From Psilocybe cubensis (taxonomy: Eukaryota), in assembly GCA_017499595.2 (NCBI GenBank), contig CM039004.1, positions 2,666,001-2,730,000 of the forward strand: a stretch of 64,000 nt of DNA, given 5' to 3'. Position 1 is the stretch's first letter. Each line of letters begins with the position of its first letter. Under the pieces are notes generated by a model that saw only the letters and a program-made list of their open reading frames with translations, was not told the origin of the DNA and did not search any database. A program made the translations under genes and the position numbers. This document shows positions 11,028-50,400 of this stretch, one piece after another.

Positions 11028-11090
11028 CGGCCCCATTGCTTAAACTCAAATTAAAGCCTTACCTCGTGAATTTCTGTACCTACTGTCAAC

Positions 11091-15686: not shown

Positions 15687-15693
15687 GGGGGAG

Positions 15694-23557: not shown

Positions 23558-23661
23558 TGTGGGTCTTAAAGACTGTTAATCGATGTTCATCTCACTTAAT
23601 TTATCATCTTAACTTGTGATAATTTATTTTTAGATACTACACAACCTATTACTATGATAAG

Positions 23662-23806: not shown

Positions 23807-24176
23807 AGTACCCCTCCCCATAGATTTAACATACATTCTAATAAAATAGACATAGACAATACTCTAGACACTCTATAATAGTTTTCGTTCAGTTAAAATT
23901 CATCTAGTTGAAAATTTGAGACACCAGAAAAAAACACACAAAAAAAAGTAAGTACCCAAAGAAATAGAATGCAGGGTGAGACGTTGAAGTTTTGTAGTGC
24001 AAGCCCAGAAGATTTCCCCCGTTGCCCGACTCCAAGCTGAAGAAATTCTGGCGTTTCCCTTCGAAACGCAGGTCGTTCGTCAGACTCTGGAAAACATGTT
24101 GCCAGAGTCGCACCCACTCCGCGTAGGTCTTAATTGGATTGCCATTTATGGTACTAATATCAAGTTTCTGTAGAGG

Positions 24177-28659: not shown

Positions 28660-29130
28660 TATTGTACAACACATTGACACACATCTTGATTTACATACAT
28701 GCCATGTTTTATTTAGTACTGAAAGGCGTGTATGTCCTGTAACATAATGACGATTGTTTTATTATCTGTAGTTGTGTGCTGCTCGTATCGCCAGACCAAT
28801 ACGCAAATTCTCGCTGGGATGAAAGCTTCTGGCTTTACTGTAACTGCTGTGCGTTTGAATTTATCATCAAGGTCAATGAAATCAACTAACTTACGTTTGT
28901 TGATGCTTCTTCCACCCACTTCAAAAAATGTGTTAGTGTCTTTGTTCTGGTGCGTATATACAGTAAAGCTCTTCCGAAGCCCTCCTTGGATTGTACTACG
29001 GATTGGTTGAATACTAACCCATGTGAAATTTGTTTGTATTAACGGAGACATAATCAGATAACATTTATAGACCCACTGCACGTTACTGAACATTACATTA
29101 TCAGTTTTTTTTTCGTATCTTCGCTTTTGT

Positions 29131-32100
29131 ATGAGTCGTTGTTTCAACATGGGAAAGGGCAAGGGCAAGAGAACTCAGGAAATCTGTGTGCGTTGTCCTC
29201 GATGCAACAAGCCATTCGCTAAGCATGCAGATGTCCAAAATCACATCAATCAACCAAAATCGGCATGTCGTTTTCAATATGAGAACGTTATGCATTTTCA
29301 GTCCAATCGTTCAAGCTCTACATCTAGATCAGCAACCCCCGTATCTCGAGACCCTTCTCCCGAAATTGGTAATTTTATGGAAGTGGACTATATCGACAAT
29401 TTTCTTGGCGCGTCATCAGAGATGGAAGATGACCCACCCCCCAAGGCATCAAAATACAACTATCCGTACGTGAAGGAGGATTATAACGGGGCTGGAAGAG
29501 CATTTGGAACAGGCCTTACATTCATGGATCAGCTCAAACAGGATCAATTCGAACCCCAGCGGGCGGAAAATTTGTACTATCCTTTTGCCTCGAAAGATGA
29601 ATGGGAGCTCTCCCTGTTCCTACTTCGCTCTGACATGAGCGTAGGAATGCTGAATGATTTTTTGAAACTTGAACTGGTAATTGAGCGTACATTCCCATCA
29701 TTATTTATTTCAGCTGAGTCGATCCCGTATAGATAAAAAAACTCAACTTGTCCTACAAGTCGGCAAAAGATCTACGCAACCGGGCAGAGATCCTTCCCTC
29801 TGGTCCGCAGTGGAAGAGTCAAACGATCATACCAGAAATACCAAGCAAAAATCAGCTAACGCTTTTTTACCGCGATGGATTGGAATGTATCAAGGCGCTT
29901 CTCATCAGTCCCTTGCTCCAAGATAGCATGCACTTTAGCCCATTCAAGCTCTTCGACAAGTGCAACGAGATGATGCGGGTATACACTGAGTGGTTTAGCG
30001 GTGACATTGCGCATTTTATGCAGGTTAGTAGCAATGCCTTTGTCCAAGTTTGACGACAGTATAACAAGGTTCCCAAGGACCAGCTCCCAAAAGGAGCAAC
30101 ACTTGTACCTCCTATTATTTCCACGGATAAAACCAACATTTCCAACATGACCGGAGGCCGTGTCGCCTACCCTGGCCTTATCAGCATTGCCAACATAATG
30201 ATGAACGTTAGAAACAAATCGTCAAATCATTTATTCCTTCTTTTTGTTCTTCTTCCCATACCAAAGTTTCTTCATCGCTCCAAAGCTGTGAATGGGATGA
30301 TGGCAGCACGGCTATATCACCAGTGCATGGACATTGCTCTAGAATCGGTCAAACAAACTGCGAGGGTGGGAACCACCATGGCAGATGCATTGGGGAATAA
30401 TCGTTTCTGCTTTACACCGCTTGCTGCCCTTATCGTTGATACTCCAGAATCTGCTCTGGCGGCTTGCATCGCAGGATCCACATCCTCTGTGACGTTGGCA
30501 CAATACGAGACGTTTGGGGATTCCTTTCGCCACCCTTCCCGAACTGCAGATCATACAATCAACACCATCATGGCCATCAACAATGTTAAGCCCCCTAATC
30601 ATCTCGAACCATATCTAAAAGAAAGCAAAAAGCACCGTCTCAATGGGGTTCACCTACCGTTTTGGAGAGATTGGCCCTTGTCTGATCCTTCTGCATTCCT
30701 TACGCCTGAACCCCTTCATCACTGGCACAAGATGTTCTGGGATCATGATGCAAAATGGTGCATTGCTGCAGTCGGAGGTTCCGAATTGGATTTTCGATTT
30801 TCGATTTTACAGCACCGCACTGGTTTCCGACACTTCAAGGAAGGGATTTCTTCCTTGAAACAAGTGACCGGTAGGGAACATCGGGACGTTCAGCGATACA
30901 TTGTTGCTCTCATTGCAGACACAGTCAGTACACCCTTTATCTTAGCCATCCGGTCTCTGATGGACTTTCGGTATCTCGCACAATCTCAAACAATCTCCGA
31001 GGCAATGTGTCTCAGAATTGAGCAGGCACTGCAAGATTTCCATGCCAATAAACAAGCCATCCTTGACGCGGGAGCACGTCGAGGTAAAAAAAACAACCCA
31101 ATCGATAATTTCTATATTCCAAAACTCGAGTTTTTGCAAAGTGTAGTACACGCAATTAGACTAAATGGATGTGCAATCCAATGGTCTGCAGACACGACAG
31201 AGCATGCACATATCGAGGTGGTCAAAGCCCCTTCCAGTTCCAGCAATAATCAAAGATACGAGCCTCAAGTTTGTCGATACCTTGATCGTCGTGACAAATT
31301 GCGCAATTTCGATTTGTTTACAGCTATACGAGAAATGAGGATTGATTTTCGGGCTATACACTCTGCAACAATTACGGATGAGGAGGAGCAGGAGGAGGGG
31401 GATGAGGGGGAGGAAAACGGCGAGGTTGTGATGGACACAACGTCAGAACTTCTTTCAACAATCATGCCGATGACAACCTTTCAATCAGCAAAGTCCAATC
31501 GCATTGTGGATTACTTCTACAAAGCTAGTCTCTATGAGCGTGGCGTATTGGAAGGCCCAGTCCCCTACAGAACATTTTCTTGCAGCAAAAACGTTGTTGC
31601 CCATTTATCTAGGGATGCTAGTTCCAAAAGATTGCATATCGACGAGGTTGCGAGCATTTTTAAAATTCCCGACCTACGACCAGCAATTGCCGATTATGTG
31701 TCACTCATCAATAAGGAATCAAATCCGAGACAGACCAATTCTCGAGGTTATCACATCAAGGGGATAACTGGCAGGCGTGTTTCTCCTCCCGGTTGTCCGT
31801 TGCCGTATTCAAAACTTGAGGTATGGCATAAGGTCCGTATACAGTCGACTGCGTACCAATACCCTCATGAGATCCTGGAGGCAGTCACACTTAATGCATA
31901 TCCGCCATCTAACAAACATCCTTTTGGATACTTCGATTCAGCAATCATAAACGTGGATGAATCTGAGGAGTGGCCTCGCAGCGGGCTTCAAGGTAGTACT
32001 TCTTTGTGACTTTTTTCCGAACCCCGTTGACCAGCCAATATTGTAGGCCATTCTGTCGTCGACATTCGTATTATTTTTCGCATTGTCGGAGAGACACCCA

Positions 32101-32435
32101 GTACTGTGTCTCCCGATATTACTGGAAGATTTCTCGCATACGTCCAACGTTTTGAGGTTTTAAATCAGCCACAGTCTCTAGGTTCTGCGATCCGTGGACC
32201 TTACCCAGAGCCAATAACCGGCATGTATAAATTAAAACGAAGTCAACGTACAGATAACACCATTATGGGTGGAATTTTACCATTGAATCAAATACGCTCC
32301 CTGGTTGATCTGGTCCCTCAGATGGGCGAGAAGGCAAGGCGAAGCCTTACTACACATAACAGTCATTCCACTAGCACCGAGTTCCGATTAAACAAATATT
32401 TTGACAAAGAACTCTATTTGGCCCTGTCATCATAA
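29131..32435 (+). CDS. Plavaka-family transposase with N-terminal zinc finger (multi-exon)
   Basis: CPRCNKPF..HINQPKSAC, YYPFASKDEWEL, LFYRDGLECI, RVYTEWFSGD, IISTDKTNISNMTGGRVAYP, PLAALIVDTPE, TPEPLHHWHKMFWDH, TGFRHFKEGISSLKQVTGREHR, FYIPKLE, WSADTTEHAHIEVVK, FRLNKYFD. Confidence 0.88.
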
Positions 32436-32475
32436 CATATCCACCTCAGGAAACCCACAAAGTTTTCAATCCCTA

Positions 32476-33010
32476 ATGCACATTGCCACTCAAATTATCA
32501 CCCAACACGCCGGCCTCGTTGTACACAAAGACGACTCGGATCAATATCAACAGCCGCTTCTCACCAGTCCCGCTTTCTCACACTGTATCATCGTCACCTA
32601 CTGCATATCCCTCCATCCATCTCATCTCTGCAGAATCAAGTCGTTCTCGCTCATCTTCCGCTCACCACCGCCCAAACTCCAAAGGATTCTTCCCAGAGTG
32701 CCTCTTCCTCTAAACAAAAATTCGCCTCCAGTCTTGTCGGTCCGTCCTGTCCTCAATTAGCGCCCATCTTGCCGGAGATACTCACTTTATTTTTTCAATT
32801 CCATTGCAGATTAAGCTGTCAGCACCTTATCTGAGATCTGGCGCCCTCAAGACATTCCCTCCCTATTTCTACCCACTGAAGTCCTTTGAGGATTGAGGAC
32901 ATCTGGAAACATACTGCAGACAGCACTATGTTATCTCGAAGCCATTCGTCCCAAGGTTCCCAAAATTTGCAAGAGGAAAGCATTGGCCTCTCTCCCACAA
33001 TCCATACCTG
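32476..33010 (+). pseudogene. Disrupted partial duplicate of the cyclin 5' region
   Basis: About 435-bp offset copy of 33061-33300 with the same intron (32740-32809), an in-frame TAA at 32812 where the second copy has CAA, and a fragment RTSGNILQTALCYLEAIRPKVP. Confidence 0.7.
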
Positions 33011-34119
33011 CCATGCCTCTGTATCATTACCTACTGAATACCCCTCCATCCGTCTCATTTCTGCAGAATCAAGTTGTTCTCACTCATCTATTCCACCCAC
33101 CACTGCGCAAATTCCAAAGGATTCTTCCCAGAGCGCCTCTTCTTCTAAACAAAAATTTTTTTCAAGGCTTGCCGGTCCGTCCTGTCCTCAATTAGCGCCC
33201 ACCTTGCCGGAGATACTCACTTTATTTTTTAAATTCCATTGCAGATCAAGCTGTCAGCACCTTGTCCGAGATCTGGCACCCTCAGGATATTCCTTCCGTG
33301 TTCCTACCCCCCGCCAAAGTAGGGGGTAGCTCTTTTCCTCCTACTCATTCCCGTCCAACTTCCAAGCAGATCTCTTCCGATTTGCAATCCATAGCGTCTC
33401 ATACACATCCAATACATCCACACAACAGTCATCCCTCCGTATCCGGCCATAACCCTTCCCCGACCCTCTTGCTTGCCTCGGGCACCAAATCCGATCAGAT
33501 ATTACCCCTCAAGTCTTTTGTTTATAAAGTCCTTCGCCACTCAAGGACATCTAAAAACGTACTGCAGATAGCACTATGTTATCTAGAATCCATTCGTCCC
33601 AAGGTCCCACAGATTTTGCAAGAGGAAAACATCGGCATTCGCTCTTATGCTCAGCCCAAAAGCAGTATTCAGAAAGCTACCCCAGAAGAGCTGGCGATGG
33701 ATGCTGAGCTTACTGCTCTTGAGAACTCCGGCAAGATCAACATCATCAATAATTTCATTGACAATTCTATGCAAACATTCCGTGTTGCCGATTCTGGTTC
33801 ACAAGATCTGGCTGAATCGTGCATCTATCCACAAGACTCTCTGTCCAGCGTAGATGTGCAGGTCTCAACGGCTCCTCTTTCCACCACCCTTTCTTTGCCA
33901 TCTCCCCTCCTGTGTCCCCGTAGAGCCTTTCTGGCATCCCTCATCCTGGCCTCCAAATTTTCACAAGAAAAGTGTTATTCTAACCGTGCTTGGGCAAGGT
34001 TATCTGGTCTCCCACCTCGTGAAATTAGTCGCTGCGAACGTGCCCTCGCACAAGCCTTGCAATGGCGACTCTGGGTCGGCAAATGCGCCTTTGGTGAGAG
34101 TGCTGCAACTGCCACATAG
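33011..34119 (+). CDS. Pho85-cyclin (PCL-type) family protein or fragment; intron 33175-33244; start codon unclear
   Basis: Cyclin box LKSFVYKVLRHSRTSKNVLQIALCYL and LLCPRRAFLASLILASKFSQEKCYSNRAWARLSGLPPREISRCERALAQALQWRLWVG. No clear in-frame ATG was found upstream of the box. Confidence 0.7.
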
Positions 34120-34363
34120 TCTCAATAAGTTTCAACTTTCACGACCGCGCCATGTAGTACGCATTCTCAATAATCACTCTCTTGCTTGCCACCACTACGC
34201 GCGCTCCTCCCGCATTCAGTTAGATAGGCATCTTCTTAGACTAGCCTAGAAAAATCTATAGAACTTTGTTTTACGTATACAGAACCCCTGAAGAATTTTT
34301 ATACCCGCGAAGTTTGTTTTCAGCTTGAATTCCAACTACGACAAAGTGAGCGTATCACACACC

Positions 34364-34914
34364 ATGCAAATCATCAGCTATGAGGAAATTTTACGAATCG
34401 AAGCAGAAGTATTGGCCCCTACTTTCCCAGATCTAATACATCCTACAACTTTCCCAGAGGCCGCCTCACTTGCTTCTCAAAGACAGCAATACGACTTGGA
34501 AATGGCTCAGTTAGTTGAGCAGACCCAAAAAATGGTCCTTTTGACCGAGAACAGGCTGATACTGGCCATCCTGGCCCTTTTCAACGAAATTAACTGGACC
34601 ACCCTGGACCCAAGGTTACTATCGTTGGCTAAAGCCAAGATTACCGAGGGTGACCAGTGGCTCAAAGCACGAGCCGTGAGTTTTCTGTTTCTTCAAGTTT
34701 CAAGTTGATACTCTTGCTTAAGATAACTAGGAGGAGACACTTCGGGATGCAGACTCAGGCAGCCCCGAGCACATATTGACCCAAGGGATGTCCATTATAG
34801 CCAACGGCCAGATTCATATTCGAACGGTAGAGGTGAGTCACAGTGATAACTACTTTGTTTCTACACTTTCTTAGTAATGGGCAGGATCTCATACGAGAAT
34901 GTCAGGATCATTAA
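34364..34914 (+). CDS. Small hypothetical helical protein (probably 3 exons)
   Basis: ORF from MQIISYEEILR with GTGAGT donors at ~34676 and ~34833 and matching AG acceptors; no recognisable domain. Confidence 0.4.
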
Positions 34915-35247
34915 TAGGGTCAAGATACTACATTGTAAATAGACACTTAATTGCCTTTAAAAATGTACATTTTATTGCTTGATATGATTGAAGAGCTTTA
35001 CTGAGACCAATCACATTGGACATCAAACTCTCCTAAGTCTGGAATCGTACATAGAGATAGCTAGGAAAATCCAAAGCTCGCAGTAGTAATGTTGGAATGC
35101 TACAGAGCTCAACGGAGCATCCCGCCGATGACACATGACGCTATACTGTCTACAGCCCACTTTGATGCTACATCCGGTTGGCAGGACAATACGTTGAGTT
35201 ACCTTCGAAAATCCGGATTTACTGATGTATAGTGTTGCCCTGACAGA

Positions 35248-35258
35248 AGATTGAAGCT
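35248..35258 (+). promoter_or_regulatory. Self-priming PBS (Tf1/sushi type)
   Basis: AGATTGAAGCT is the exact reverse complement of LTR 16938-16948 (AGCTTCAATCT), 34 nt downstream of the TATA start. No TGG tRNA-type PBS is present. Confidence 0.8.
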
Positions 35259-35736
35259 CTCTCAAGACAACTCCACCATCTCTCTTTCAACACCAAACTC
35301 TTCACCTCTTCAACCTCTTCAACACCATTACCTCAACCTTCTTCCTCCACTTCCAACCCACCAACCTCTTCATCAACCTCTCCACCAATCTTCTTACCAA
35401 TCTCTACATCTCCACCAATCTTCAACATCCTCCTCAAGACCTTTCCTCAAGACCTTTGGCTCATCATCTTTCCTACTCTCTGTTGTGTGCTGTGTGTGAA
35501 CTTAGTAGATAGGGATACCAACTGTTGGGGCAGACACAGTCCTACTAGTGTTCTGTTTTTGGTGGTCTAGGAAATATCCAGTAACCCTGTGATCCTAGGT
35601 TTAGAGCCCTGAGTGGTGTGACAACTGGGTATCCAGTAGATAGATATTTTTTTAGAATACTTAGTATAGTTTCAAGGGCACTTTCAGTAGATAGCTTCTC
35701 CCACACACACATCAGAGAGCCTACCTACCCCTACCC

Positions 35737-36840
35737 ATGGACATGGACCCCTCCCAATTGCCTCCCACCACTCCTTCTGTGGAAGAGCTCATGCATCAGG
35801 TCCAGCTCCTTACCCAAGAGTTGAATTTTCTTAGACAGCAGCAGCAGTCATTATCCACTCCACCACACCCTCAGCAACCAGTCAGTCAGTCACCATCACC
35901 ACCACCACCACCTGCTGCTCTAGATATTCACTCTTTCCCTACCCCTCATGTTGCCCCTTCCTGTTCACACTCTGCCATTAAAGTCTCACCTCCAGATCCA
36001 TTTGATGGTTCTATGGAGAAGGCAGAAAACTTCCTCAGTCAGCTTAAATTATATTTCTATGGGAAAGGGATTACAGATGACTTTCAGAAAGTTATTTGTG
36101 CTCTATCTCATATGAAAGGAGGTACTGCTGGGAAGTGGGCATATGAGAAGACTAAAGTAATAGACAATGCTCAGTCCCAAGAAGGTCTTTGGGCTGACTT
36201 TGTTTATGAATTTAGGGAAGTATTTGCAGATCCAGACCCCTCCAACACAGCTAAGCATAAAATGCACATGCTCAAGCAAGGCAGACAGACTGCTGATGAG
36301 TATGTTGCTAGCTTTAGGGCTCTGATCTCAGATACTGGGTATAATGATGCTGCTTTGGTAGACCAATTCAAGGCTGGGCTTAATGAAAATCTCAGGAATG
36401 CAGTCTATTATGTTCCTGACATGCCCAAAACCTTGGATGGATGGATTAAATGGAGTACCAGGCTAGATAGGCAGTGGAGACAGAGTGAGGCCTTTACCAA
36501 GTCTCTTTCCTCCTCCTCTTCTTCTCCCTTCCTTAAAGCCCCAACTCCCAAGGCTATTTCTAAGCCTACTCCAAATCCTCCAGTCTTTTCCAATAGCAGC
36601 TCTAGGACCTTTGGTGCTCAGGCAAAGCAACCAGATGTAGTTCCCATGGAGGTTGACTCTGGATGGAAGTCAGTTAGGCCAATTGTTTGCTTCAAGTGCA
36701 GAAAGCCTGGTCATAAGGCTGTAAACTGCAGGTCATCAGTTAACATCAATGCTATGACCCATGAAGAACTGGCTGACTACTTTGGGAAATTAATCTTGGA
36801 AGGCAAGGAGCAGAAAGATGAGGAAAAGAAAAATTTTTAG
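35737..36840 (+). CDS. gag: Gypsy Gag
   Basis: KVSPPDPFDG, ALSHMKGGTAGKWA, LKQGRQTADEYVASF, VPMEVD, zinc knuckle CFKCRKPGHKAVNC. Confidence 0.93.
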   Translation: MDMDPSQLPPTTPSVEELMHQVQLLTQELNFLRQQQQSLSTPPHPQQPVSQSPSPPPPPAALDIHSFPTPHVAPSCSHSAIKVSPPDPFDGSMEKAENFLSQLKLYFYGKGITDDFQKVICALSHMKGGTAGKWAYEKTKVIDNAQSQEGLWADFVYEFREVFADPDPSNTAKHKMHMLKQGRQTADEYVASFRALISDTGYNDAALVDQFKAGLNENLRNAVYYVPDMPKTLDGWIKWSTRLDRQWRQSEAFTKSLSSSSSSPFLKAPTPKAISKPTPNPPVFSNSSSRTFGAQAKQPDVVPMEVDSGWKSVRPIVCFKCRKPGHKAVNCRSSVNINAMTHEELADYFGKLILEGKEQKDEEKKNF

Positions 36841-39800
36841 AAGCACCATTGGTGAAAGACATGTCCCAATGGAATAGATTTAATGTACTAGAAAATGAAA
36901 TTGACAGACTTGATCCTCAGTCTTCAGATTCTGGTGCAGAAATCATGTCTTCTTCTTCCTCTCTTTCTACCTTCCCTGAAAAGATCTACATCCTCAACCA
37001 TAATCCTAAAACCTCTACCCATTTGTCTGTCATCTTAAAGACAATGGACACAGAGAAAAGGTTATCTGTTGATGCTTTGCTTGATTCTGGAGCTACTGGC
37101 CTCTTTCTGCATTCTGGTTTTGTGAAGTATCATAATCTCAACAGAAGGAAACTTCCTAGAGCCATTCCAGTCTATAATGTTGATGGTACTCTCAACAAGA
37201 GTGGCTCTATCCATGAGGAAGTAGACTTAATTATGGTACACAAAAACCATACAGAAAGGGCCACCTTTGCTGTTTGTGACTTGGGAGACAAATCTGCTAT
37301 CATTGGACATACTTGGCTTTGGCACCATAATCCAGATGTTGATTGGAAGACAGGGGATGTCCAGTTTATTAGATGTCCCTCTGACTGCCAAATGGAAGCC
37401 AAAAGAGCCAGAAGAAAGAGGCAGAGAATAGCTGCAGTCAAAAGGAGGAAACTCCCTCAATTTGATGAAGAAGAAGATGATTCTATTGAAGATTCTTCTG
37501 ATTCTGAGATTGAGCCTGAGGATAGAATTTTTATCTCATACCTTCATCCTCAGAAGCAGTCTATTAATGCTACTTCTACTATGTCTCAAAGATTAGCAGA
37601 AGAGTCTCATCAGCAAGCTGATTCCCTTAAGAAAACCTTTGAAGAAACTGTTCCTAAGCACTATCATCAGTTTAAAGGTGTTTTTTCAAAGGAATCTTTT
37701 GATAGGCTACCAGACAGAAAGCCTTGGGATCATGCTATTGAGCTGAAACCTGGTTCTGAACCTTACAGATCCAAGATTTATCCTCTTTCTCCCAATGAAC
37801 AAAAGGAACTTGATGCCTTTTTAGAGGAAAATCTGAAGTCTGGCAGGATTAGACCCTCCAAGTCACCTATGGCCTCCCCTGTATTCTTTGTCAAGAAGAA
37901 GGATGGATCTCTTAGGCTTGTCCAGGACTATAGGAAACTGAATGAAATGACCATCAAGAACTCCTACCCCCTTCCATTGATTTCTGACATCATCACCAAA
38001 CTCAGCAAAGCCAAATACTTCACCAAACTTGATGTTAGGTGGGGATTTAACAATGTCAGAATCAAAAAGGGAGATGAATGGAAAGCAGCCTTTAGAACCA
38101 ATAGAGGGCTGTTTGAACCATTGGTCATGTTCTTTGGTTTAACCAATAGTCCTGCTACCTTCCAAACTATGATGAATGATATCTTTATTGAGCTCATTGA
38201 TGGAAATGTTGTCATTGTCTACATGGATGACATTTTAATTTTCACTGAGACTCTTGATCATCATAGAGAGGTAGTCAAGCAAGTTCTGCAAATCCTAGAA
38301 CAGAACAAACTCTACCTTAAAGCAGAGAAATGTGAATTTGAAAAGGAAAAGATTGAATATCTTGGACTAATCATTTCACAAGGCAGGATTGAGATGGATC
38401 CTGTCAAGGTAGAGGGAGTTTCTAAATGGCCTGAACCTGAAAATGTCAAGGATGTCCAATCATTCTTGGGATTTGTTAATTTTTATAGAAGGTTCATAGA
38501 GGATTTTGCAGACATTGCTAAGCCCCTTCATGAATTGACAAAGAAAGGAACAGTCTGGAGATGGAGTCTTAGACAGCAGGAAGCCTTTGACCAGTTAAAG
38601 AAGAAAGTCACTTCTTCACCTGTCTTGATTTTCCCTGATGATAACAAGCCATATAAAGTTGAAGCAGACAGTTCAGATTATGCTACTGGGGCTGTTTTAT
38701 CTCAGAAAGGATCAGATGGGAAATGGCATCCTGTAGCCTTTATGTCTAAGAGTCTATCTGAAGTAGAAAGGAATTATGAGATCCATGACAAAGAGATGCT
38801 GGCTATTATCAGAGCACTAGATGAATGGAGACATTATCTTGAAGGAACCCAACATTCCTTTGAGATTTGGACAGACCACAAAAACTTAGAGTACTTTATG
38901 GTTGCCCAAAAGCTCAGCAGAAGGCAAGCCAGATGGTCACTCTTCCTGTCCAGATTTGATTTTACTCTTCATCATAGGCCTGGTAAAAGATCTCTTAAGC
39001 CAGATGCTTTGTCTAGGAGACCAGATCATAAAAAGGGAGAGAATGATAACCAAAATGTAGTTCTCCTCAAACCTTCCTACTTTAAAATCCAGGCTCTCAA
39101 GCAGGGTCATGCTACCATTACTGGTGCAGAAAATGATCTTCTTAAGAAGATTAGAGAAGCTAAGGAGATGGATGAAAAGGTGGTCAAGGCAGTTCAGGAG
39201 CTCAAGAAATCTTCTACCAAGAAGATTGAAGGACAGGAATGGTCAGAAGAACAAGGCCTTATTCTCTACAGGGGGAAGGTGTATGTTCCCAAGGACAAAG
39301 ATCTTAGAAGAAAGATTGTGGAACTGCACCATGATGCCTTCATTGCTGGACATCCAGGGAAATGGAAGACAATTGAGCTAGTCTCTAGGAATTATTGGTG
39401 GCCAGGAATGTCACATTTTATTGCAGCCTATACCAGAGGTTGTGATAGATGCAACAGAACCAAAACCTTTCCAGCCAAACCTCTTGGCCTTTTAATTCCT
39501 ACTGAGATTCCCTCTGATGTCTGGCAATGCATCTCTGTGGACTTTATTATGGGGTTACCAGAATGTCAAGGGTATAATGCCATTATGGTGGTTGTGGATA
39601 GACTTAGTAAAATGATCCACATTATCCCTACTACAGATGAAGTCACTTCTGAAGGGACAGCCAGACTATACAGAGATTATGTCTGGAAACACCATGGCTT
39701 ACCCATTAAAATTCTGTGTGATAGAGGTCCACAGTTTGTCTCAAGGTTTATGAAAGAACTCAACTCAATACTTGGTATCCAGACAGCCTCATCTACAGCC

Positions 39801-40718
39801 TACCATCCCCAAACTGATGGTCAGACTGAAAGAGTTAACCAAGAAATTGAGCAGTATCTTAGACTCTTTATAAACCATAGACAAGATGATTGGGTTGAAT
39901 GGTTAGCTCTAGCTGAATTCTCTTATAACAATAGAGTTCAGGCTTCAACCAGGCAGACACCATTCATGCTCAATAATGGCAGACATCCCAGAATGGGCAC
40001 TGAACCCCTTAGAGATAGTAAAATGGACACTGTGGATACCTTTGTGAAAAATATGGAAGAAGCCAGGAAAGAAGCAGAGTCTGCACTTAGAAAAGCTGCT
40101 GATGATATGGCTAAATTCTATAATAGACACAGAGGTACTCCAACTCAGTACAAAGTTGGGGATTTGGTATGGTTAGATGGCAAGGACCTCAAAACTGATA
40201 GGCCCTCCAAGAAATTGGATGATAAAAGATATGGGCCTTACAAAATTACCAAAGTTATTAGCCCTAATGCCTATGAGCTTAAGCTGCCATCTACCATGAA
40301 AATCCATCCAGTGTTCAATGTGGTTAAACTTCTACCTTATCACTCAGATATTGTAGGAAGAAAGCCTCCTTCTAGACCACCTCCTGTCATTCAAGGAGAA
40401 AATCCTGAGTGGGAAGTTGAATTTATCAAGGACAGCAGACTTTTTAGAAACAAACTTCAATATTTGGTCAAGTGGAAGAACTATCCTAATGAAGAATGCA
40501 CTTGGGAGCCTGCAGAGCATTTGAAAAATGCTTCTAAGGCTATCAAGGACTTCCATGCCAAACATCCTTCAGCACCTAGAAGGATTTCTGCTGTGACCTT
40601 TGATAGACTTTCTTTCACTCCTATTATTAACTTTACTGAACCTCCTCCTCTTCTTAAACCCTCTAAACTAACCCATCCATGTGCACATTGTGGAAAATGT
40701 GCCTTAGAGAGGGGGTGA
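36831..40718 (+). CDS. pol: Gypsy Pol (PR-RT-RH-IN-chromodomain), probably expressed by -1 frameshift
   Basis: ALLDSGAT, FTKLDVRWGFNN, YMDDILIF, EADSSDYATGAVL, NYEIHDKEMLA, GHPG..CDRC, DRGPQF, YHPQTDGQTER, chromodomain WEVEFIKDSR..YLVKWKNY..TWEP. The ORF is uninterrupted and in the -1 frame relative to gag. Confidence 0.95.
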   Translation, partial: KFLEAPLVKDMSQWNRFNVLENEIDRLDPQSSDSGAEIMSSSSSLSTFPEKIYILNHNPKTSTHLSVILKTMDTEKRLSVDALLDSGATGLFLHSGFVKYHNLNRRKLPRAIPVYNVDGTLNKSGSIHEEVDLIMVHKNHTERATFAVCDLGDKSAIIGHTWLWHHNPDVDWKTGDVQFIRCPSDCQMEAKRARRKRQRIAAVKRRKLPQFDEEEDDSIEDSSDSEIEPEDRIFISYLHPQKQSINATSTMSQRLAEESHQQADSLKKTFEETVPKHYHQFKGVFSKESFDRLPDRKPWDHAIELKPGSEPYRSKIYPLSPNEQKELDAFLEENLKSGRIRPSKSPMASPVFFVKKKDGSLRLVQDYRKLNEMTIKNSYPLPLISDIITKLSKAKYFTKLDVRWGFNNVRIKKGDEWKAAFRTNRGLFEPLVMFFGLTNSPATFQTMMNDIFIELIDGNVVIVYMDDILIFTETLDHHREVVKQVLQILEQNKLYLKAEKCEFEKEKIEYLGLIISQGRIEMDPVKVEGVSKWPEPENVKDVQSFLGFVNFYRRFIEDFADIAKPLHELTKKGTVWRWSLRQQEAFDQLKKKVTSSPVLIFPDDNKPYKVEADSSDYATGAVLSQKGSDGKWHPVAFMSKSLSEVERNYEIHDKEMLAIIRALDEWRHYLEGTQHSFEIWTDHKNLEYFMVAQKLSRRQARWSLFLSRFDFTLHHRPGKRSLKPDALSRRPDHKKGENDNQNVVLLKPSYFKIQALKQGHATITGAENDLLKKIREAKEMDEKVVKAVQELKKSSTKKIEGQEWSEEQGLILYRGKVYVPKDKDLRRKIVELHHDAFIAGHPGKWKTIELVSRNYWWPGMSHFIAAYTRGCDRCNRTKTFPAKPLGLLIPTEIPSDVWQCISVDFIMGLPECQGYNAIMVVVDRLSKMIHIIPTTDEVTSEGTARLYRDYVWKHHGLPIKILCDRGPQFVSRFMKELNSILGIQTASSTAYHPQTDGQTERVNQEIEQYLRLFINHRQDDWVEWLALAEFSYNNRVQASTRQTPFMLNNGRHPRMGTEPLRDSKMDTVDTFVKNMEEARKEAESALRKAADDMAKFYNRHRGTPTQYKVGDLVWLDGKDLKTDRPSKKLDDKRYGPYKITKVISPNAYELKLPSTMKIHPVFNVVKLLPYHSDIVGRKPPSRPPPVIQGENPEWEVEFIKDSRLFRNKLQYLVKWKNYPNEECTWEPAEHLKNASKAIKDFHAKHPSAPRRISAVTFDRLSFTPIINFTEPPPLLKPSKLTHPCAHCGKCALERG

Positions 40719-41168
40719 TGTCAGGGTTTCTCCAGTTTCCCCTCTTTATCTTCACAGAATTATCTTATCCTTTCATTATCTTATCAATTATCTGATTAGA
40801 TAGTTTATTTCTTTCATCACAGCCTTCTTGCTCCACTTCTTTCTAGTAAATTCTATATGATTCCTAGTCTTACTCATCCTTTTTCTATATGATGTCACTT
40901 TTATTCTTTAACCTTCCTTTATGATGTAATGTAGGGAATATTCTAGAATAGCTGTAGAGTATAAATACTGGACTTGTAGGTAGCTGTAGCTTCAGCTTCA
41001 ATCTCTTAGGATATCCACTATCATTGGTGTGATCTCTTAGAACCATTGAATCTCTCTCACTCTCTTATTCTCTCTTTGCTCTCTTACTCTCCCTCTGCTC
41101 TCTCTCTCTCTCTCTTGCTTAATCTTTGTTGGTGGCCTTGTCACACTGATTATAGTGTTGCCCTGACA
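40719..41168 (+). repeat. Gypsy 3' LTR (intact)
   Basis: 450 bp, TGTCAGGG...CCCTGACA, followed by TSD CCCTG. Confidence 0.97.
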
Positions 41169-41251
41169 CCCTGCCCACCATCACTTTAGCTTTCGCACTC
41201 GTGGTATCTCTTGTGTCTGGATTATCATTGCATGGTCGATTACCCCTGTCG

Positions 41252-42360
41252 TATGGCTGTCCGTTTGCACATTTAATACCAATCATTAAACTTTTTGTCC
41301 CATACATATAGAGAACAGTTTTATACGATCCCCACTATATATATTAATGTCCCACTCATAGAGAGCTAGTTTCCGAGCATAGAGGAAATCATCCCGATAA
41401 TTGTATTTACAGAATCTTCAACTTTAATGAATGGTACATACATATATACATCTCACCCCTATATATGACATCCCGTACCATACTTTGTAATCCCCTCCCC
41501 ATATATCTAACATTTTTTCCAAAGACATAGAGTTGTCGAGATGACTAATACCCTGCGTGCCGGCACTGCCGAATCCGTGTGGGAATTATATTTGTACCCC
41601 GCTTTGGGGTGGATAGCTACTCCTGAAGCAGCTAGGGGAATACTTTAAGTTCAGATATGCATTAAAAATTTCGAGTTTGATGATGAAACACAAAACCTGT
41701 GCGTATAGCTGACCCTGAGTAGATTGACCACCTATAACCTCAACTTCAGGTGTATTTAACCTTAACCAAACTTAACATATCTGCTACTGGCTGTTATCAC
41801 AGCGCTTGGCTCAGAAAAAACACTCAATAATGCTGTATTTAGCTTACATTATAGCATTCACAATCGGTTAGTATTTGAAACTGTGTCAGTGCTTACTCTG
41901 CCTCTGCCTGTGTCAAGGTGAAAAAACAGCAATGTGCTGTGATTCGTCTGGCTGATTGCCGAGATATGCCGAATTCGCACGAAGGCAAGCTTGCCACGGC
42001 AGGAACGAATGCCGAAAATCACCTGTATTTCTTCGGGACGACGACAGGTAAAATCTAAGATTGCCGGAACCAGTAGATATATGTGGGGGAGGAAAAAATG
42101 TATGAAACGGCATGGGTTTCCTATGTAAGGGATTCTAATATATATATATATGTGGGCTCCAAAACTATATGTATGGTACTCAAAGTTGTACCTAAGGTTG
42201 CAATATACAAATGTGTGGATATGAGATCTTTATGATTGGAAGCCTTTTCTCTATCTTCGGACACCATAAGATATAGTTATTGGAAGACTTAGTCCAAGAC
42301 TTCTAAATATGGGACAAAAAGTTTAATGATTGGTATTAAATGTGCAAACGGACAGCCATA
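41252..42360. mobile_element. Non-autonomous TIR element A (MITE-like, ~1.1 kb)
   Basis: Perfect 53-bp inverted repeats 41252-41304 / 42308-42360 (TAtggctgtccgtttgcacatttaataccaatc...) bounded by TA; no coding capacity recognised. Confidence 0.85.
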
Positions 42361-42368
42361 CAGCCATA

Positions 42369-43804
42369 GTCCGTTTGCACATTTAATACCAATCAATAAA
42401 CTTTTTGTCCCACACATAGAAGTCTCAATTCTACATAATTCCATATACATACTCTGGTGTCCCGGATATAGAGAGAAGGCTTCCGAACATATAAATCCAG
42501 TATCCATACATTCATAGGTTGCACCCTCAGATACAACTTTGAGTACCATACATATAATTTTGGTGCCCACATATACAAATCACAATCCCTTACACAGATA
42601 AAACACTCCATTTTATACATATTTTGTTCCCTTACTTATATCAGAAGGTTGCCTGTATGATTGTTCTTACCCTTCTTCATCCCGAAGATATACAGTCATT
42701 TTCGGCATTCTTTCTATGCCGTGCATGCCTAGACATCGTGAGAATTGGCAAATCTCGGCAAGTGAGAACACAAATTACAGTTCGTTGCCTGTATGCCTGT
42801 CGACACACGCTAACTGAACATTGTAAAGATTCACATTGATCCAAGCAGTAAACATACTTTTGTGTAAGCTCATTACAGAAGTAGTATGTCTTCATAGTCT
42901 GAGACGAGTGCCTTGACCACTCCCAGTCGCTGTGCTATGGTTTAAAAAGGCCTGAAGTTGAGGTTGCAGACAGATTATTGCATTAGAATAGGCTGTATGT
43001 AATCTTATGTTATTTTAATGTATTATTTCATGCCCTTAATGGATTTTATAATCTTGTAATGACCGTCCTATTTTCTTCACATGTAGCAATCCACTACAAG
43101 CGGGACGAAAAATAGAGTTCCCACGCCTCTACGGCAAGGACGGCATGTGTAATATTCATCTGGACAACTCTATAGTCCTTCTCAATTCTAAAAGTTAGAA
43201 AAAAAGTTAGAAATTTATGCATGGCAACAGTTTAGCAACGATCATACTGGGCGTCGAGGACATGCGGTATGACGCCGCCAAGTGTGATCCTGTTCCTGTC
43301 TGAGTTAGAATGAGTCTGAAAGTTGGCAGGCTTTGCCGCCGTGCTTCGGTTGCCATTGACGCGTCCAGACACGCGAATGAGTTGTGCCGCTCGGCATTGG
43401 CATACAACATTTTAAACACCGCTTTGTCTTGTCCATCTAGGCATCACAAAGCCAAGACGCCCAGCGTGATTGTTGCCATGCATAAATTTCTAACTTTTTT
43501 TCTAACTTGTAGAATTGAGTAGGACTTATATCTTCGGACAAAAATTGAGGTACATGCCGAGAGGGTCACAGACTATGGTACCAAATTTTATATGTATGAG
43601 GATCATACCCATATCTGTGCAGCTCCTATTCCAATTGAAGGGCATGCAAGAACAATGACTGGGATAATTTCTTCTATGCTCGGAAATTATCTCTCTATAA
43701 CCGGGACACCAAGGTGTGTAGTTGGGTTCAAGCAAAATTGTTATTTATATGTATGGGGAAAGAAGTTTATACATTGGTATTAAATGTGCAAACGGACAGC
43801 CATA
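42369..43804. mobile_element. Non-autonomous TIR element B, same family as A, opposite orientation
   Basis: Same TIR core at 42369 (5'-truncated) and at 43773-43804. 42369-42600 resembles the reverse complement of ~42120-42352, and 43530-43804 resembles the reverse complement of ~41252-41530. Confidence 0.8.
43174..43526. repeat. Inverted-repeat element (~350 bp) nested in element B
   Basis: agtccttctcaattctaaaagttagaaaaaaagttagaaatttatgcatggcaac versus its near-perfect reverse complement ending at ~43526; inner ctgggcgtc / gacgcccag also pair. Confidence 0.8.
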
Positions 43805-45146
43805 ACGGACAGCCATAGTAGCATAGTCTCGTATCCATCCGCGATCTAATTAGCCCGAAAAGGTGCGAGGACGCCTTTTTATAGCAACCGCGGCACTTGA
43901 CGGGCTTTGAAAGCACAATGGGATTTGACTTGCAGACATCATCACATCAAAATCCGTATATAGATGCTTTGCCGTATGCTCAAGTTCACTCTGATGTCCC
44001 CCCTTCTTCAAGTTGAGAAGTGATTTGCTTGCTATGAATGTCCTGCTTTTTTTCTTCCTGACGAGTGGTGTGGGCGGCATCTGAGAGCACCATGACGCCC
44101 ATACGCATGTGCATACTCCTGTGTGAATTTATGGGTAGTGAGTCTTCCATTGTTCTCTCTTTTGGGACGGCTTTGTGGACGTACCTCGAAGTTGCATCTG
44201 GGTGTATTGCTTGTATCTAATGGAGATGTACTAGGGTCTTGGTGTGCAGTTGGTTCAAAAGCCTATCCCAGTTGGCCGACAATGCACATAAAACAATGCG
44301 CTGAACAAAACTCTCAACTAGTGCTCAAGGCAAATGCCAGTTGCCTTCCCAACCTTGTCTTGACCTTGTATTTTTAACGCAACAAGCGACCTTGTCTGGT
44401 TGTAAATGCACAAAGCACACCTTGTCCAAAAGTTTGCTCGACGACTCGGCTGTATGAAGCGTTTCCAAGGAAAATATTCATGTGGCAGATGGGAAAGTGA
44501 TTTTGTTCGAGTGTTGAATGTCGGAATTTTCAGGAATGCCTTACAAGGCCGAAAAGGCCGGCAAGGCCCGGCTAGCCTTGTGATGCCTCCCAATCTGAGA
44601 GCGTGCCTAAGAAGTAACCGTGATTGACCTTGTAAGGTAGTGGCTTAGAAGTCTATACATGCCTAGCAAGGCGTAGGGAATAAGATTAGATTAAAAGACC
44701 TTGCTAGGTTGGGCTTGATTCAAAGGGCATCTAACAAATTAAAAGGAAGATGAACGCACTGACATAGTTTCCAATTGATTAGTAGTCAACGATTGCTTTC
44801 AGTAGGAATTGTGTTGAAGTCAAACTTTTATGCACTTACCAAGAACCGAACGCCAGACCTTCAAGACAAGACAAACCTACCAATAGCATTGTTACCACTA
44901 GACCAAACCTCCTTTCTTAAATTATAGTGTGGCGTTAATATGACACCACATTTTCTGTGCTTAGTCAACTGATGTAACCGATCGAGTCCAGAGTCGTCTA
45001 CTCGGACTTCAATTTTTTCAGACAATCTCAATCGTGAGGGCCGTACTATGCATTGAAAAGCAAAGAAGTAATCAACCAAACACAGTAGTATGTCCGCCAT
45101 AATGAGATACACCGGAATGCAAAGTAGTCTAAGTACAGCGTGCCTA

Positions 45147-47145
45147 CTATAATGGTGTAATATTAGCACGCTTACTAGAGCGTGTGCTCCGTGTTTTGGC
45201 TACAACAGTTGCGTCAGGCTGCACAGGGGCCAACCCCTTCTTTCGACCACGTTTTGGCTTGATTACTGGTGCTTCAAGTGGAGAAATGCTTGTGGAAGCA
45301 TTAGGAACAGAGACTGTATTGGAAGAAAGGGGAGGGCTTGTCGGAGTCTGAGTCTTCGGAACTGGGAGAAATACTGGGAGTGGAGCATTGACCGTGGTAT
45401 TTGTAACATGGAGTGCAGACTCAAAGGCTGCCGGAGTCGGTTCTAATACCAATGATACATAATGGGCATGAGCTAAACGCGTGGGAATCAAAAGACAAGT
45501 ACCTTCGTCAGTATCAGATCTATCTTCAGTAATATCCTGAGTATTAGATGGCAGGTTCCGAGTGCTTTGTAGTGGCGGCGCAAAGTCTTCTACATCAGAG
45601 TCGGTGTCACGGTCTTCCACATTAACGATAGGACCCGGAATAGAAGTTGTTGAACTAGGAGTTATGGTTGTTTGTCGACTAAAGTTGGCAATCATCTGAT
45701 AAACCGGATGCGGAGATGGACTTGACTCGGAATCCGACATCCTGGAATGGCTTGATGTAAGGATTTCCGTAGGCTGCTGTGTAATAGAAGTAGGAATAAT
45801 GGGTTTTTGGTGTGGAAAGAGAATATTATCCCAATATTTGAACAGTGAAGCGAGTGATGACTGCTGTGTAATGAGATAATGCTTGTACATATCGTGTTGA
45901 GCAAGATAAAGCCTCCCTGTTGTTGGTCCTACACCACTACTGGTAAATTCACGGTCGTCGGATAAGATGTATATAGTCTATATTAGTAGTCAATATCTAG
46001 CACTCAATTTATAATACATGTAATAACAAATACATACCGCTGTTGCAGACGCAGCTATCAAGCCTGGTGTTGTACAATTCATACGACTATCAATATGGGC
46101 GCTTGGACTATCTTCCCGTGTTCGAGGCATAATCTCCGCCTTTAAGGCCGATGGCCCTAGAAGAATGATTCTTGCCGTCTAAACTAGAGTTTTAGCCAGG
46201 TATTATGTATTTTCAGAATTAAATATACTGTACCTTCAAAAGAAAATCACTTTTAAAAAGTCCCAAAGCGTTGTTGGTGTCAGAATCTGCAAATAAAACT
46301 GGGGGAAATGTGTGCGCAGTGTCATTGGGATAAATGAGCTTCCAGATTTCCTTCGTTCCGGTCATCACTTTTACACGGTCCGATGCACCAAGCAATGTTT
46401 GCACAACCGCATGGGAGCTTAGGCCAAAAGACAATGGTGAGGTGAACAGCTCAGATGGAATGTTTGGGAAAATAGAAGGCGCAGAGGTCCGAATCTTATT
46501 TAGTATTGTTGAACGGCCTTCCGACAAGCCTTTAACGAACTATAGAATAAAGATATATGAGCAAGATATCCTAAACTTGGAAAAAAGATATAAAACGCAC
46601 CACATTAACTGCCATCTCCACATTCTCACTGATAATTGAATGGTACTTTGCTGGAAAGCATTCGTACAATTCCGCAATATTGCCAAGCTTGGATGTATTC
46701 TCGTCTTTGTACCGAGCAGATGCATTGTTAGAGCTGAACGAAGGCCTGGGATTTCCAAAGAGTGACTTGGGAACAATAATACGATAGAAAATGAAATGAT
46801 ATTTAGCAAGACGAATAAGGTCCTTTCGGAGAGCTATTTCGGCTGCGCAATCCGATGTGTCAGAGACAGCAGGTCGAACAGCGCCTTTTTTGTTGATCAA
46901 GCGCATTTTCAAACTTGCGTTTTCCTCTTTAAGCTCCCGGACCTTTGATTCCAGATTAAAAATGGTATCTTGCTGGATCCGACACCTCTGTTTCTATTCA
47001 TTAGAATCTAGAAAATGCAAAAATACATTAAAATATTACTTACTTGCTCAAGCTCGGCCAATGTTGCTCCACGGAAAAAAGACGCGCCTGAAATGGATGA
47101 CTCGCCTGCAACGGAGCTTGGAACAATTGACATTGATGAAGACAT
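45147..47145 (-). CDS. Multi-exon transposon-associated hypothetical protein (coiled coil, possibly DUF6698-like core, S/T/P-rich tail, AT-hook-like KRGRKK)
   Basis: Starts MSSSMSIVPSS. Exons include ORFs 46571-46912, 46219-46527 (FPPVLF..LFKSDFLLK), IILLGPSAL..TTPGLIAASATA and 45147-45890. Family call is tentative. Confidence 0.55.
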
Positions 47146-47416
47146 GACCAAAGAGTTGTACCAGAGAGGATATGAGTTAGAATATCAGTGCTGCTACTCA
47201 GAAAGAAGAAATTTTGTGTCTTTTAAACAGAAAAGTGAGCCGCACCCTTTCCTCATGTTAAGCGCCGTGCTATAGCCTTGATATAACATCATTTTCCCAC
47301 TATGTAAAGGATCAAGCTGAAAATTTAATATAACGTGTACAAAACACAAAAATAGAGCACTATGCATGCTTGATTACACTCTTTATTGTATTCTGTTTAA
47401 TATGTAACAACACTAG

Positions 47417-50400
47417 TTATAATAAAACATGTGTAGTTAATTTTATTGATTTTAACCGCCACCACATGTCCGGATCAAGTGAATCCATAACAATAAACTC
47501 GTTTGCATCATTTCCAAAGTCTGGAATCAGAAGGCCACCGCGTACTATACTACGTACGTCAATAATTGCAGAGTTTGTTCGCCTTCGGGCTCGTACTCGG
47601 AGAAACTCTAAATCTTTATCACGCCTACGTGCCAAATTTGTGCGCTGATCAACCGGTTCATCAAGTGGCAGAATAAGAGCAAGCGGCCACTCTGTTTTGT
47701 CATCTAATGACACAATAAACATGAACAGAAGTTGTGCAAAGCAGTACTTCTGATGATCAAGTGCCAAAAGGACGTAATCATTTCGTGGCCGCTTGTGGAA
47801 ACTTTTGCTAACTCGAACCATATCTCTTTGAGCCGACCAATCAATTTCCGACTGATAATGAATTCTTGCAAGCTCAAATGGTGTAATCTGTTACACAAGT
47901 AAGTTTTGACATGAAAAATAAATAATGCTTAAATTGTTCTTGTAACTCTTACCTTATGATTGGCTTTTAATCGGATAGTACTTCCAGAAGCTGCTGCAAG
48001 GTATTTTCCTGTTTTAATCCGGAAGCGTTCAAATGCCATGTTCTCTTTGAATTGTTTTTCCACATCGGCAAATGTGATTATTGCTTGAAGTGACCCAATT
48101 GAAATGTGACTTTGAGCTCTTTTCTCATTACTTGATCCTGTTAAATGTCAATTTAATAACATTATACATGTACAAACAAATAGACCGTTACCCAATGAAT
48201 TTCCAAGATTGGAAACTTGTGGTGTAGATATAAGTGATTCTTCGCCGTCCTCTTTGGGCATGTCAAGATCATCAATAGCATTGATATCCATGCGAATAAT
48301 CATTGCAATAAGATCATCGTGGTTCATTTTTAATATCTGTTAGAAGCAAATTTACTAGATCAGACAAATAATATTGTACACATGAATTAAAGCACATTCC
48401 TGTGGCGCCACATCTTTGAAATTGGTGTGAAAGCGGTACCAGAGCTTAAGCAAGCCATGTGCCTTTTCATTGGGTTTAGTATTAGAGTTCCGAGTTGCAC
48501 CTTTTGCAACAATATCTTGAATCATATGGACATGTGAATGGATTTTAGGAAAATTCCAATTTTTGTCTGGATGGAGTTGAATATATTCCTGGAAATTTTA
48601 TTGTTGAGAGAATTAATTGGGTCTACATATGAATTGGAGAATGCCTTACCTCAAGAATAGAACAGAACTTTGCAAGTTCTTTTTGTAACCCATGTAATGT
48701 TGTACTGCTATGAATAATCAAAGATGAATACATATCCAATTCTACAAAGCTTCGCATAAGCTTGAGCAGACAATATCCACGGTCTGACTTCTCTAGAACA
48801 TTATGAGATGCATAACAAATGATCTAGAAATCACAGATATATTATATTCACAATTAGTGTCTAAAAAATGCATGTGTACCTTTGCTATATCTTCATATTT
48901 TGTTCCATCTGCAAATTCTCCTGTCTTAATTATAGATGCAAAGTGATTAAGACCACTCCATCGAGGAATTTGATCAAATCTATAAAAGCATAAACCTTAT
49001 TATTACTTATCCATCAAGAGGTTATATTATCAATGCTTACTGATTGTCAATAATCTCAGCATCTTTCCTTCCAGAGCTATCAATAATAGCCTTAAATTCT
49101 GACCATAAATGATCAGAAAATAGTCCACCATGGTATGCATGTAGTCGATCCCAGGAAAGAGCTTTATATACATCACTCCCATTCATCATCCAAAATACAT
49201 TCTGTAGGAAATATTAATCAAGAATAATGACATATATAATGCACTATACCTCTACATTTCGTAATCCATATTCTTTTAAATAATTCTCCTTATCTTTAGC
49301 TGTAAAATTTTGTGCCTCTGTATATATGTGTTTCATTTCTGCTGATGTTCGATAAGGGTATACCGTGGTAAGATTTGATAAATTTTCCTTTGGAACCAAG
49401 CATACAGGACACGGAAAGTTGCTTGTAGCACCACGGGTTAGGGCCATAACACATCTATAAAATAGGCGCCCAACAGTTTCATTTACTATAACAATTATAT
49501 TGAAGTAAACTATTACTTACTGCTCTTCATAATCCGCTGATAAAATCAAAATAAAGAAGAATAGCCACCGGACAATGTTGTCTGCACACTGTGCATAGTA
49601 TCCTGTTGTGGCATATTCTTGAACGGACTTAAGAATTTCGTGGAATCCTTTGTGCCAAACAATACGCTTGAAGTTTACAAAAATTTTCTTTCCTGACTCG
49701 CCAGCATCTTCATCAACCTAGAAATCCATATTTGGAGTTTAATACTAAAAAAATTTATAACATTTAGAATGCTTACAATAGGCAGCCATCCAACTAGGAT
49801 TCCCCCACCAATACCATCACTGTTTCGAAGATTTGCTGGAAGATTTGCACAGCGAGCAAGCACTGGATATGCCTTTGCAGTACCAAAGGTGGATAGCCGA
49901 GTTTTGTCTGCATATAGGATAATAAAAAATGGTAATGCACCATTGGGAAGAAGGTTCTAAAGCAGAGTAGGATGATAAGTATTCTACATTTGTAAAAAGA
50001 AAAATATATACATCTACCTGGATGCTCCACCATTCATTTGCAGTCCATGGTTCTCCAATCAACCGGTCTCGTTTACCGTCATTTTGTTTATAATGCCTTT
50101 CAGCAATCCAATGAAACTGTGAAAGTAGAGAAGGATTCTGAAGAAGACTATTGCACCACTCAATTAGTGGCCGGATATACACTTCATACCCAATTTCATC
50201 ATTTTGGTATGGTACAAGATATTCCTTTTTCTGGAACTGTACTCCATAGTATTAGTTAGTACAACTACAAAATAGAAAAAATATTACGCACTCCAGTTGA
50301 ACGGTAGCTACGAGCAAGCTCCCAGGTCTTCTCAAGCTCTGATACACTGTCAATTGTAAACTGCTCTGGCTTTTCTTTGATTCTGTCAATAAGGGTTAAT

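Follow-up and report, generated by a model that had tools for sequence, protein, structure and literature searches.

Results

The 64,000-nt stretch of Psilocybe cubensis DNA analysed here (assembly GCA_017499595.2, contig CM039004.1, positions 2,666,001 to 2,730,000 of the forward strand; hereafter the window, position 1 being its first letter) carries a gypsy retrotransposon in which the dinucleotide CG (CpG) does not occur. The element lies on the plus strand in two pieces, 16663-17096 and 35230-41168, which total 6,373 nt and are separated by a foreign nested insertion. From its domains and motifs we assign it to the Ty3/gypsy (Metaviridae) long terminal repeat (LTR) retrotransposons, and among these to the chromoviruses of Tf1/sushi type.

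The 5′ LTR begins with TG, runs through the first 434 of its 450 nt at 16663-17096, and is completed by the final 16 nt at 35230-35245, ending in CA. Joined together, the two parts match the 3′ LTR (40719-41168, 450 nt, TG...CA) at 450 of 450 positions, as the first-pass annotation of the window had proposed, and the 5-bp target-site duplication CCCTG is found at both flanks (16658-16662 and 41169-41173). The 3′ LTR contains a TATA box, TATAAATA, at 40960-40967, and the repeat region (R) is predicted to start 27 nt after it, at 40994, the putative transcription start. Two bases past the 5′ LTR begins a putative primer-binding site for self-priming (35248-35258), an 11-nt exact complement of LTR positions 40994-41004. 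In the minimum-free-energy fold of the predicted R-U5-leader RNA, which assumes that same start, nt 1-11 indeed pair with the putative primer-binding site (z -3.4). We take this layout to be the self-priming arrangement of Tf1. A polypurine tract (40706-40718) is located immediately 5′ of the 3′ LTR.

The gag gene (35737-36840, counted from its first ATG; the frame is open from 35695, for 381 amino acids) matches Ty3_capsid, Retrotrans_gag and zf-CCHC. Its frame overlaps that of pol (36822-40718, 1,298 amino acids) by 19 nt (36822-36840) in a -1 relation, and the canonical-type heptamer A_AAT_TTT (36831-36837, read in the gag frame), immediately 5′ of the gag stop, is a predicted slippery site at which a -1 frameshift would lead into pol. 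The Pfam matches of pol are RVT_1 (residues 357-518), RT_RNaseH (606-712), Integrase_H2C2 (825-882) and rve (902-996), the integrase region thus spanning 825-996; a Tf2-type SH3 domain occupies residues 1113-1174. The Pfam search of pol returned no protease match, and the protease is seen only as a D-S-G motif (residues 88-90), invariant in 21 aligned sequences. The resulting order of protease, reverse transcriptase, RNase H and integrase, with the integrase after the reverse transcriptase, is the one by which Ty3/gypsy elements are recognized. C-terminal to the integrase lies a chromodomain (40410-40559, residues 1197-1246; PF00385, E 2.5e-15), which had already been noticed at first pass. 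Its best matches in the PDB are the chromodomains of CDY1, CDYL, SUV39H1 and HP1 (best E 2e-12), and its cage positions in the alignment hold three aromatic residues, W, W and Y. It therefore resembles the readers of histone H3 methylated at lysine 9 (H3K9me), and is predicted to bind this mark.

The earlier description of the element as intact holds for its coding parts, as gag and pol are open and their motifs present, but not for the 5′ LTR, which is split by the 18.1-kb insertion. R-U5 and the primer-binding site are thereby kept apart, and the window copy is probably no longer mobile.

Not one CpG is found in the 6,373 nt, where the element's own composition predicts 266.7; at the rate at which CpG occurs in the remaining 57.6 kb of the window, 298 would be expected, and 2,000 mononucleotide shuffles of the element gave a mean of 266.6 and a minimum of 221. 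Both the absence of CpG from about 6.4 kb and the expectation of a couple of hundred, which the first-pass annotation had put forward from a reading by eye, are thus accurate. The deficit holds for each piece, with 0 against 253.6 expected in 35230-41168 (5,939 nt, GC 41.4%) and 0 against 12.7 in 16663-17096, and the count is zero in the LTR, the leader, gag and pol taken separately. In particular, the 450-nt promoter LTR (13.7 expected) is left without CG sites for maintenance methylation.

The window as a whole contains 2,695 CG, an observed/expected ratio (o/e) of 0.83, and the element (GC 41%, CpG 0) stands against surroundings with a GC content of 45.5% and a CpG o/e of 0.90. Its two pieces lie in the longest and second-longest stretches without CG in the window, from 35214 to 41194 (5,980 nt) and from 16617 to 17109 (492 nt), the third being 262 nt long; for the mirror dinucleotide GC, the longest free run is 203 nt. 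Furthermore, all 2-, 3- and 4-mers absent from the element contain CG, so that avoidance is limited to CG-containing words. The same count gave an o/e of 1.24-1.27 for a neighbouring copia element and 0.81 for the nested insertion, which carries a Plavaka transposase; both are CpG-bearing, as had been stated at first pass.

The coding sequence shows how this absence is accommodated. All 93 arginine codons of gag and pol are AGA or AGG and none is CGN, in agreement with the earlier impression, and the four NCG codons (TCG, CCG, ACG and GCG) are each used zero times. At codon junctions, C followed by G was never observed against 90.3 expected (22.2 + 68.1): the third position preceding a G-starting codon is T, A or G, never C, while C makes up 25% of third positions elsewhere, and ahead of these G-starting codons it is replaced by both T and A.

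The TG+CA o/e of the element (1.17) is close to that of the rest of the window (1.14). This is not the surplus that some 267 fresh C-to-T changes would leave, which argues against a fresh C-to-T sweep. We also examined 3,374 aligned sites that carry CpG in 19 intact relatives; at these, the window element has AG (23%), TG (18%), AA (10%), CA (9%) or CT (8%). The AG class corresponds to the arginine route from CGR to AGR, which requires a C-to-A transversion and is the sole synonymous exit from CGN. We read this pattern as the outcome of a long, selection-filtered replacement within an evolving lineage.

Sequence of the element, or of part of it, was present in 16 of the 22 public sequencing runs listed, and 11 of these, from 8 studies, contain half or more of its 31-mers. 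Four runs were mapped on window 34001-46000, among them X19, which consists of raw Illumina reads independent of the assembly (depths sum both directions). In X19, depth reaches about 1,300-1,700x over the element body and about 3,240x over the LTR; outside the element it is about 590x at the end of the Plavaka-bearing insertion and 310-880x in the downstream flank, dropping to 54x, 12x and 0x. Moreover, 751 reads join 41150 to 35228, the uninterrupted LTR-leader junction that is absent from the window copy. If single-copy depth is taken as about 36x (1,631.7 M letters read over a genome of about 45 Mb, contig sets under the same label having 41-47 M letters), the family comprises roughly 30-40 near-identical copy-equivalents.

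Of 86,945 X19 reads mapped, 49,772 are at least 99% alike to the window. A sister copy with normal CpG content would differ at more than 200 sites (>3.4%), so that, with such reads dominant, sister copies rich in CpG cannot be the rule. CpG-rich sisters would have pointed to hypermutation of one copy, as noted at first pass. Indeed, CpG decay of a single copy, or hypermutation resembling repeat-induced point mutation (RIP), was considered and rejected: both open reading frames (ORFs) are open, TG+CA is 1.17 against 1.14, and most reads at about 1,500x are at least 99% alike.

Family members are not all of one length. At 35896, in the proline-rich start of gag, 559 of 1,843 X19 reads carry an inserted CACCAC and 210 of 1,843 an inserted CACCACCAC, so that copies of the family are polymorphic in length at this place. 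In run X13, contigs with a depth of about 3,300-9,000 align to window 36400-41200 at 83-87% identity, so that a related family is hugely abundant there, alongside low-depth near-identical pieces. The 40 differences of this relative that were examined (out of 995 difference rows) create no CpG, against 3.8 expected (P ~0.014). No RNA run is listed among those that carry the element. Run X14, whose RNA nature is only a guess, contains six contigs 99-100% identical to the element; we do not count it as evidence of expression.

Protein relatives of pol number in the thousands, the best being 84-70% identical. Named relatives are closest in Psilocybe cf. subviscida (84% amino acid identity), from which the cluster of the best hit includes at least six proteins of full length; relatives from Lyophyllum shimeji and Phellinidium stand at about 55%. 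By these relatives alone the host would very probably be placed in the Agaricales. A FastTree phylogeny of pol was built from 124 rows, comprising the window, 33 proteins and 90 loci. Not included were one locus with too few columns, loci L092-L098, the even-numbered proteins and most of the later ones. In this tree the window pol groups, with support 98, within a clade of 26 rows otherwise made of proteins only, with 70-84% amino acid identity.

At the DNA level, scans of metagenomes and IMG/VR supplied 98 related loci, with 35-60% amino acid identity and at most 69% identity to the element by blastn. Their CpG o/e ranges from 0.14 to 1.22, and a CpG-free relative was sought among them and not found. 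In this group a low CpG content generally marks a decayed copy: an ORF of more than 739 amino acids occurs in none of the 59 relatives with a CpG o/e of 0.67 or less, while 17 of the 39 with 0.69 or more have an ORF of at least 1,000 amino acids (these lengths are somewhat lowered, as some contigs are shorter than an element). Compared with these 98 loci, the window element is the only one to combine a CpG o/e of 0 with a complete pol, which argues for a property of the lineage and not for the decay of one copy. The earlier proposal of a CpG loss at lineage level, compatible with function, is likewise upheld by the AGA/AGG-only arginines, the open ORFs, the sister reads at least 99% alike and the X13 differences that create no CpG.

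Long CG-free stretches do occur in individual relatives. The longest run among 91 of the loci, 1,335 nt, is found in L007 (5696-7031), covering the pol end and beyond in an otherwise CpG-bearing element (o/e 0.5); stretches of 570-950 nt are also present in L018, L017, L014, L016 and L008.

Three other repeats of the window serve for comparison. The copia element at 10599-16110, 553 nt upstream of the gypsy element, is bounded by 417-nt LTRs with 100% identity, with TCTAC as target duplication; the two elements are thus equally young, but opposite in composition. The nested insertion entered a gypsy copy whose LTRs remain identical, and is thus younger than that copy. Finally, the region 47001-52000 (GC 37%, CpG o/e 0.57, TG+CA o/e 1.30), with only short ORFs lacking Pfam matches, looks like old, CpG-decayed repeat DNA.

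Discussion

CpG depletion in transposons is usually taken as the scar left by host methylation on dead copies. Here the depletion is extreme and affects a family of tens of copies whose coding parts are intact and whose LTRs are identical. We lean, though only slightly, towards the view that this is a CpG-free lineage which has kept all its functions and spares itself both CG methylation and methyl-CpG mutation. What we infer here is that the copies are unmethylated, that they escape silencing, that they target heterochromatin and that selection rather than mutation alone shaped them.

Several steps would lead to such a state. The lineage may have rid its promoter, leader, gag and pol of all CpG by way of changes tolerated by selection, namely arginine recoding to AGA/AGG, avoidance of NCG codons and exclusion of C ahead of a G-starting codon. 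A sequence devoid of CG would offer no substrate for CG methylation, premeiotic repeat methylation or methyl-CpG deamination. The chromodomain, for its part, is predicted to direct insertion into H3K9-methylated heterochromatin, where CG methylation should be densest, so that a chromovirus of this kind would be maximally exposed to the CG methylation system. A CpG-free sequence could then allow residence in heterochromatin without methylation or mutation, which would fit a recent burst. The host background is as the first-pass annotation assumed: passages of PMC7862722 describe, in Basidiomycota, a preference for CG methylation through DNMT1 and DNMT5, preferentially in transposable elements. 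Escape from this system would also agree with the youth, uniformity and high number of the copies, which the identical LTRs and tens of near-identical copies indicate, and the older repeat at 47001-52000 shows that the expected CpG decay is seen within the window.

A stronger proposal is that the family enjoys complete immunity to the host's CG-specific defence (premeiotic de novo methylation, DNMT1/DNMT5 maintenance and methyl-CpG mutation), integrates into heterochromatin and owes its burst to this immunity. We find this conceivable, and somewhat short of probable.

Several observations weigh against a CpG-free lineage that has evaded methylation. The neighbouring copia element, equally young, has 510 CpG (o/e 1.27) and a GC content of 54% against 45% for the window; the CpG-free state is therefore not needed for activity in this genome. 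The Plavaka-bearing insertion, with its o/e of 0.81, is younger than the gypsy copy that it entered. As both of these CpG-bearing elements were recently active, CG-directed pressure in this genome is not overwhelming, and either it must be specific to the gypsy element (through its chromatin target, its history or an RNA/cDNA factor) or the copia element is a newcomer. At the protein level no clear footprint of CpG decay is seen, since among 21 arginine columns conserved in the sister clade 14 are still arginine in the window element and the others are scattered. Furthermore, the element's own 26-row clade is known as proteins only, so that an old or shared CpG-free state is documented by the short X13 pieces alone, and one 30-nt loose end in X13 does contain a CG.

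The absence of CpG could instead be a mutational equilibrium that brings no benefit, the passive scar of a lineage methylated for a long time and still controlled by H3K9 methylation or RNA interference (RNAi). Methyl-CpG would decay fast, and purifying selection would retain only the losses compatible with the proteins. The relatives indeed show all grades of CpG depletion, the old repeats of the window are CpG-poor with an excess of TG+CA, and the text of PMC3318451 ascribes the over-mutation of CpG in Agaricomycotina transposable elements to deamination of methylcytosine. What makes us consider such an equilibrium unlikely is first the zero itself. In a rough model of our own, the element has about 900 TG/CA sites, each one transition away from CpG, and to keep the count at zero in the face of this regeneration removal must be about 100-300 times faster than ordinary transitions, unless selection acts against copies that gain CpG; the excess of CpG loss in mammals is 10-50 fold. 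Moreover, the CpG-poor relatives are broken in 59 of 59 cases, so passive decay normally kills copies, and the neighbouring copia element has retained its CpG.

Pressure at the level of RNA or cDNA, exerted by a host factor that senses or deaminates CpG in retroelement RNA or cDNA, would account equally well for depletion over the whole element, since all its parts, including U3, are present in the genomic RNA, and it would explain why the DNA transposon Plavaka keeps its CpG. An analogous factor is ZAP, which acts on CpG-rich viral RNA in vertebrates. We know of no such sensor in fungi, however, and our literature searches turned up none; the copia element, which is RNA-borne and just as young, has a CpG excess. 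We therefore hold this explanation to be improbable. To a horizontal transfer, by which a CpG-free state shaped in a host with a stronger CG-directed defence arrived recently, we likewise give little credence. The burst is very young, near-identical sequence occurs in runs under at least eight organism labels, and the element differs from its surroundings in both GC and CpG content, as transfer would have it. On the other hand, those labels may represent a single species, the relatives in Psilocybe cf. subviscida (84%) and, more distant, in Lyophyllum both belong to the Agaricales, as vertical descent predicts, and a transfer would shift the question to another host instead of answering it. 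As to an artefact of assembly or base calling, methylated motifs can produce systematic long-read errors. We rejected this source, which we consider next to impossible, on the grounds that independent Illumina reads match mostly at 99% or more, that Logan contigs of 11 runs cover half or more of the 31-mers, and that open ORFs with synonymous AGA/AGG recoding are the product of no error process.

Depletion of target sites as a transposon counter-defence is an already known kind of adaptation, and the present element is an extreme case of it. In Arabidopsis thaliana, passages of PMC3907296 describe the promoter of ONSEN (ATCOPIA78) as devoid of symmetric maintenance-methylation sites and read this as a bypass of epigenetic silencing. 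The two elements are alike in having an LTR promoter without sites for maintenance methylation. However, ONSEN is a plant copia element; as far as those passages go, the claim concerns its LTR promoter, and CHH methylation still acts on it. Here the entire 6.4 kb is without CG, coding sequence included, and the host is a fungus, with methylation almost confined to the CG context. Transposable element lineages of Microbotryum were found to be poor in TCG where the change is nonsynonymous, and counter-adaptation was discussed (Hood et al. 2005, as cited in Horns et al. 2012, PMC3318451). There too a lineage is short of the target of host hypermutation, but, from what that citation conveys, the target is TCG, the mutation is RIP-like, the host belongs to Pucciniomycotina and the result is a paucity rather than a full absence. 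The CG-deficient transposon populations of Basidiomycetes, with hypermutated and immobilised copies (Clutterbuck 2017, as cited in PMC11451569), share the transposon-linked CG deficiency and, as summarized there, resemble our 59 broken CpG-poor relatives and not the intact window family. Active gypsy elements can also persist under RIP-like mutation, according to passages of Horns et al. 2017 (PMC5381629).

With Tf1 of Schizosaccharomyces pombe, MAGGY and the sushi group the window element shares the order gag, protease, reverse transcriptase, RNase H, integrase and chromodomain, and the Tf2-type SH3 domain. Its 11-nt complement two bases past the LTR would further match the self-priming of Tf1, for which the first 11 nt of Tf1 are used; in MAGGY, H3K9me is read by the chromodomain. 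The window element differs from them in that its gag and pol lie in different frames and a -1 slippery site is predicted, and we know of no report of a CpG-free composition in Tf1, MAGGY or sushi elements. Vertebrate retroviruses and RNA viruses with CpG suppression also avoid CpG genome-wide while keeping their coding capacity, but there the suppression is partial and a known sensor acts on the RNA. Full-text searches of the literature brought up no earlier account of a complete, multi-copy fungal retrotransposon that is coding-intact and has zero CpG, although such an account may exist.

If the family does lack methylation, then the dinucleotide that a genome defence targets can be evolved away in full, with no loss of function. 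If it is in addition immune to the CG-specific defence, it would be the first whole-element, zero-target escape of a transposon from DNA methylation, and a natural reagent for finding what, if anything, silences a repeat beyond CG methylation. The zero-CpG gypsy element beside a CpG-rich copia element of the same age constitutes a natural control for telling apart what CG methylation, H3K9 methylation and RNAi each contribute to the silencing of repeats in Agaricomycetes, and this pair could serve to gauge the share of methyl-CpG mutation in transposon death.

Additional observations

The nested insertion (17097-35229, 18,133 nt) has CATCAG...CTGATG ends and a TA duplication. Long terminal inverted repeats were looked for in it and none were found, its inverted ends being limited to 6 nt. 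Within it lie the Plavaka transposase ORF, with a DUF6830 match (30054-32009), and, on the minus strand, an Spt5-like ORF with NGN/KOW domains (22089-22952). The X19 depth at its end, which concerns the last 1.2 kb, suggests that it is present in many copies.

The copia element has a single in-frame TGA at 13557-13559, between its gag-integrase and reverse transcriptase parts. Further downstream, window 44801-46000 received no X19 read, the depth falling from 54x to 12x just before, and the strain under the X19 label thus differs there from the source of the window. Among the relatives, L081-L098 are fungal Ty3/gypsy elements filed as viral contigs in IMG/VR, mostly of element length (5.2-7.4 kb), and protein P0081, labelled as coming from a Pyrinomonadaceae bacterium metagenome-assembled genome, is probably eukaryotic contamination.

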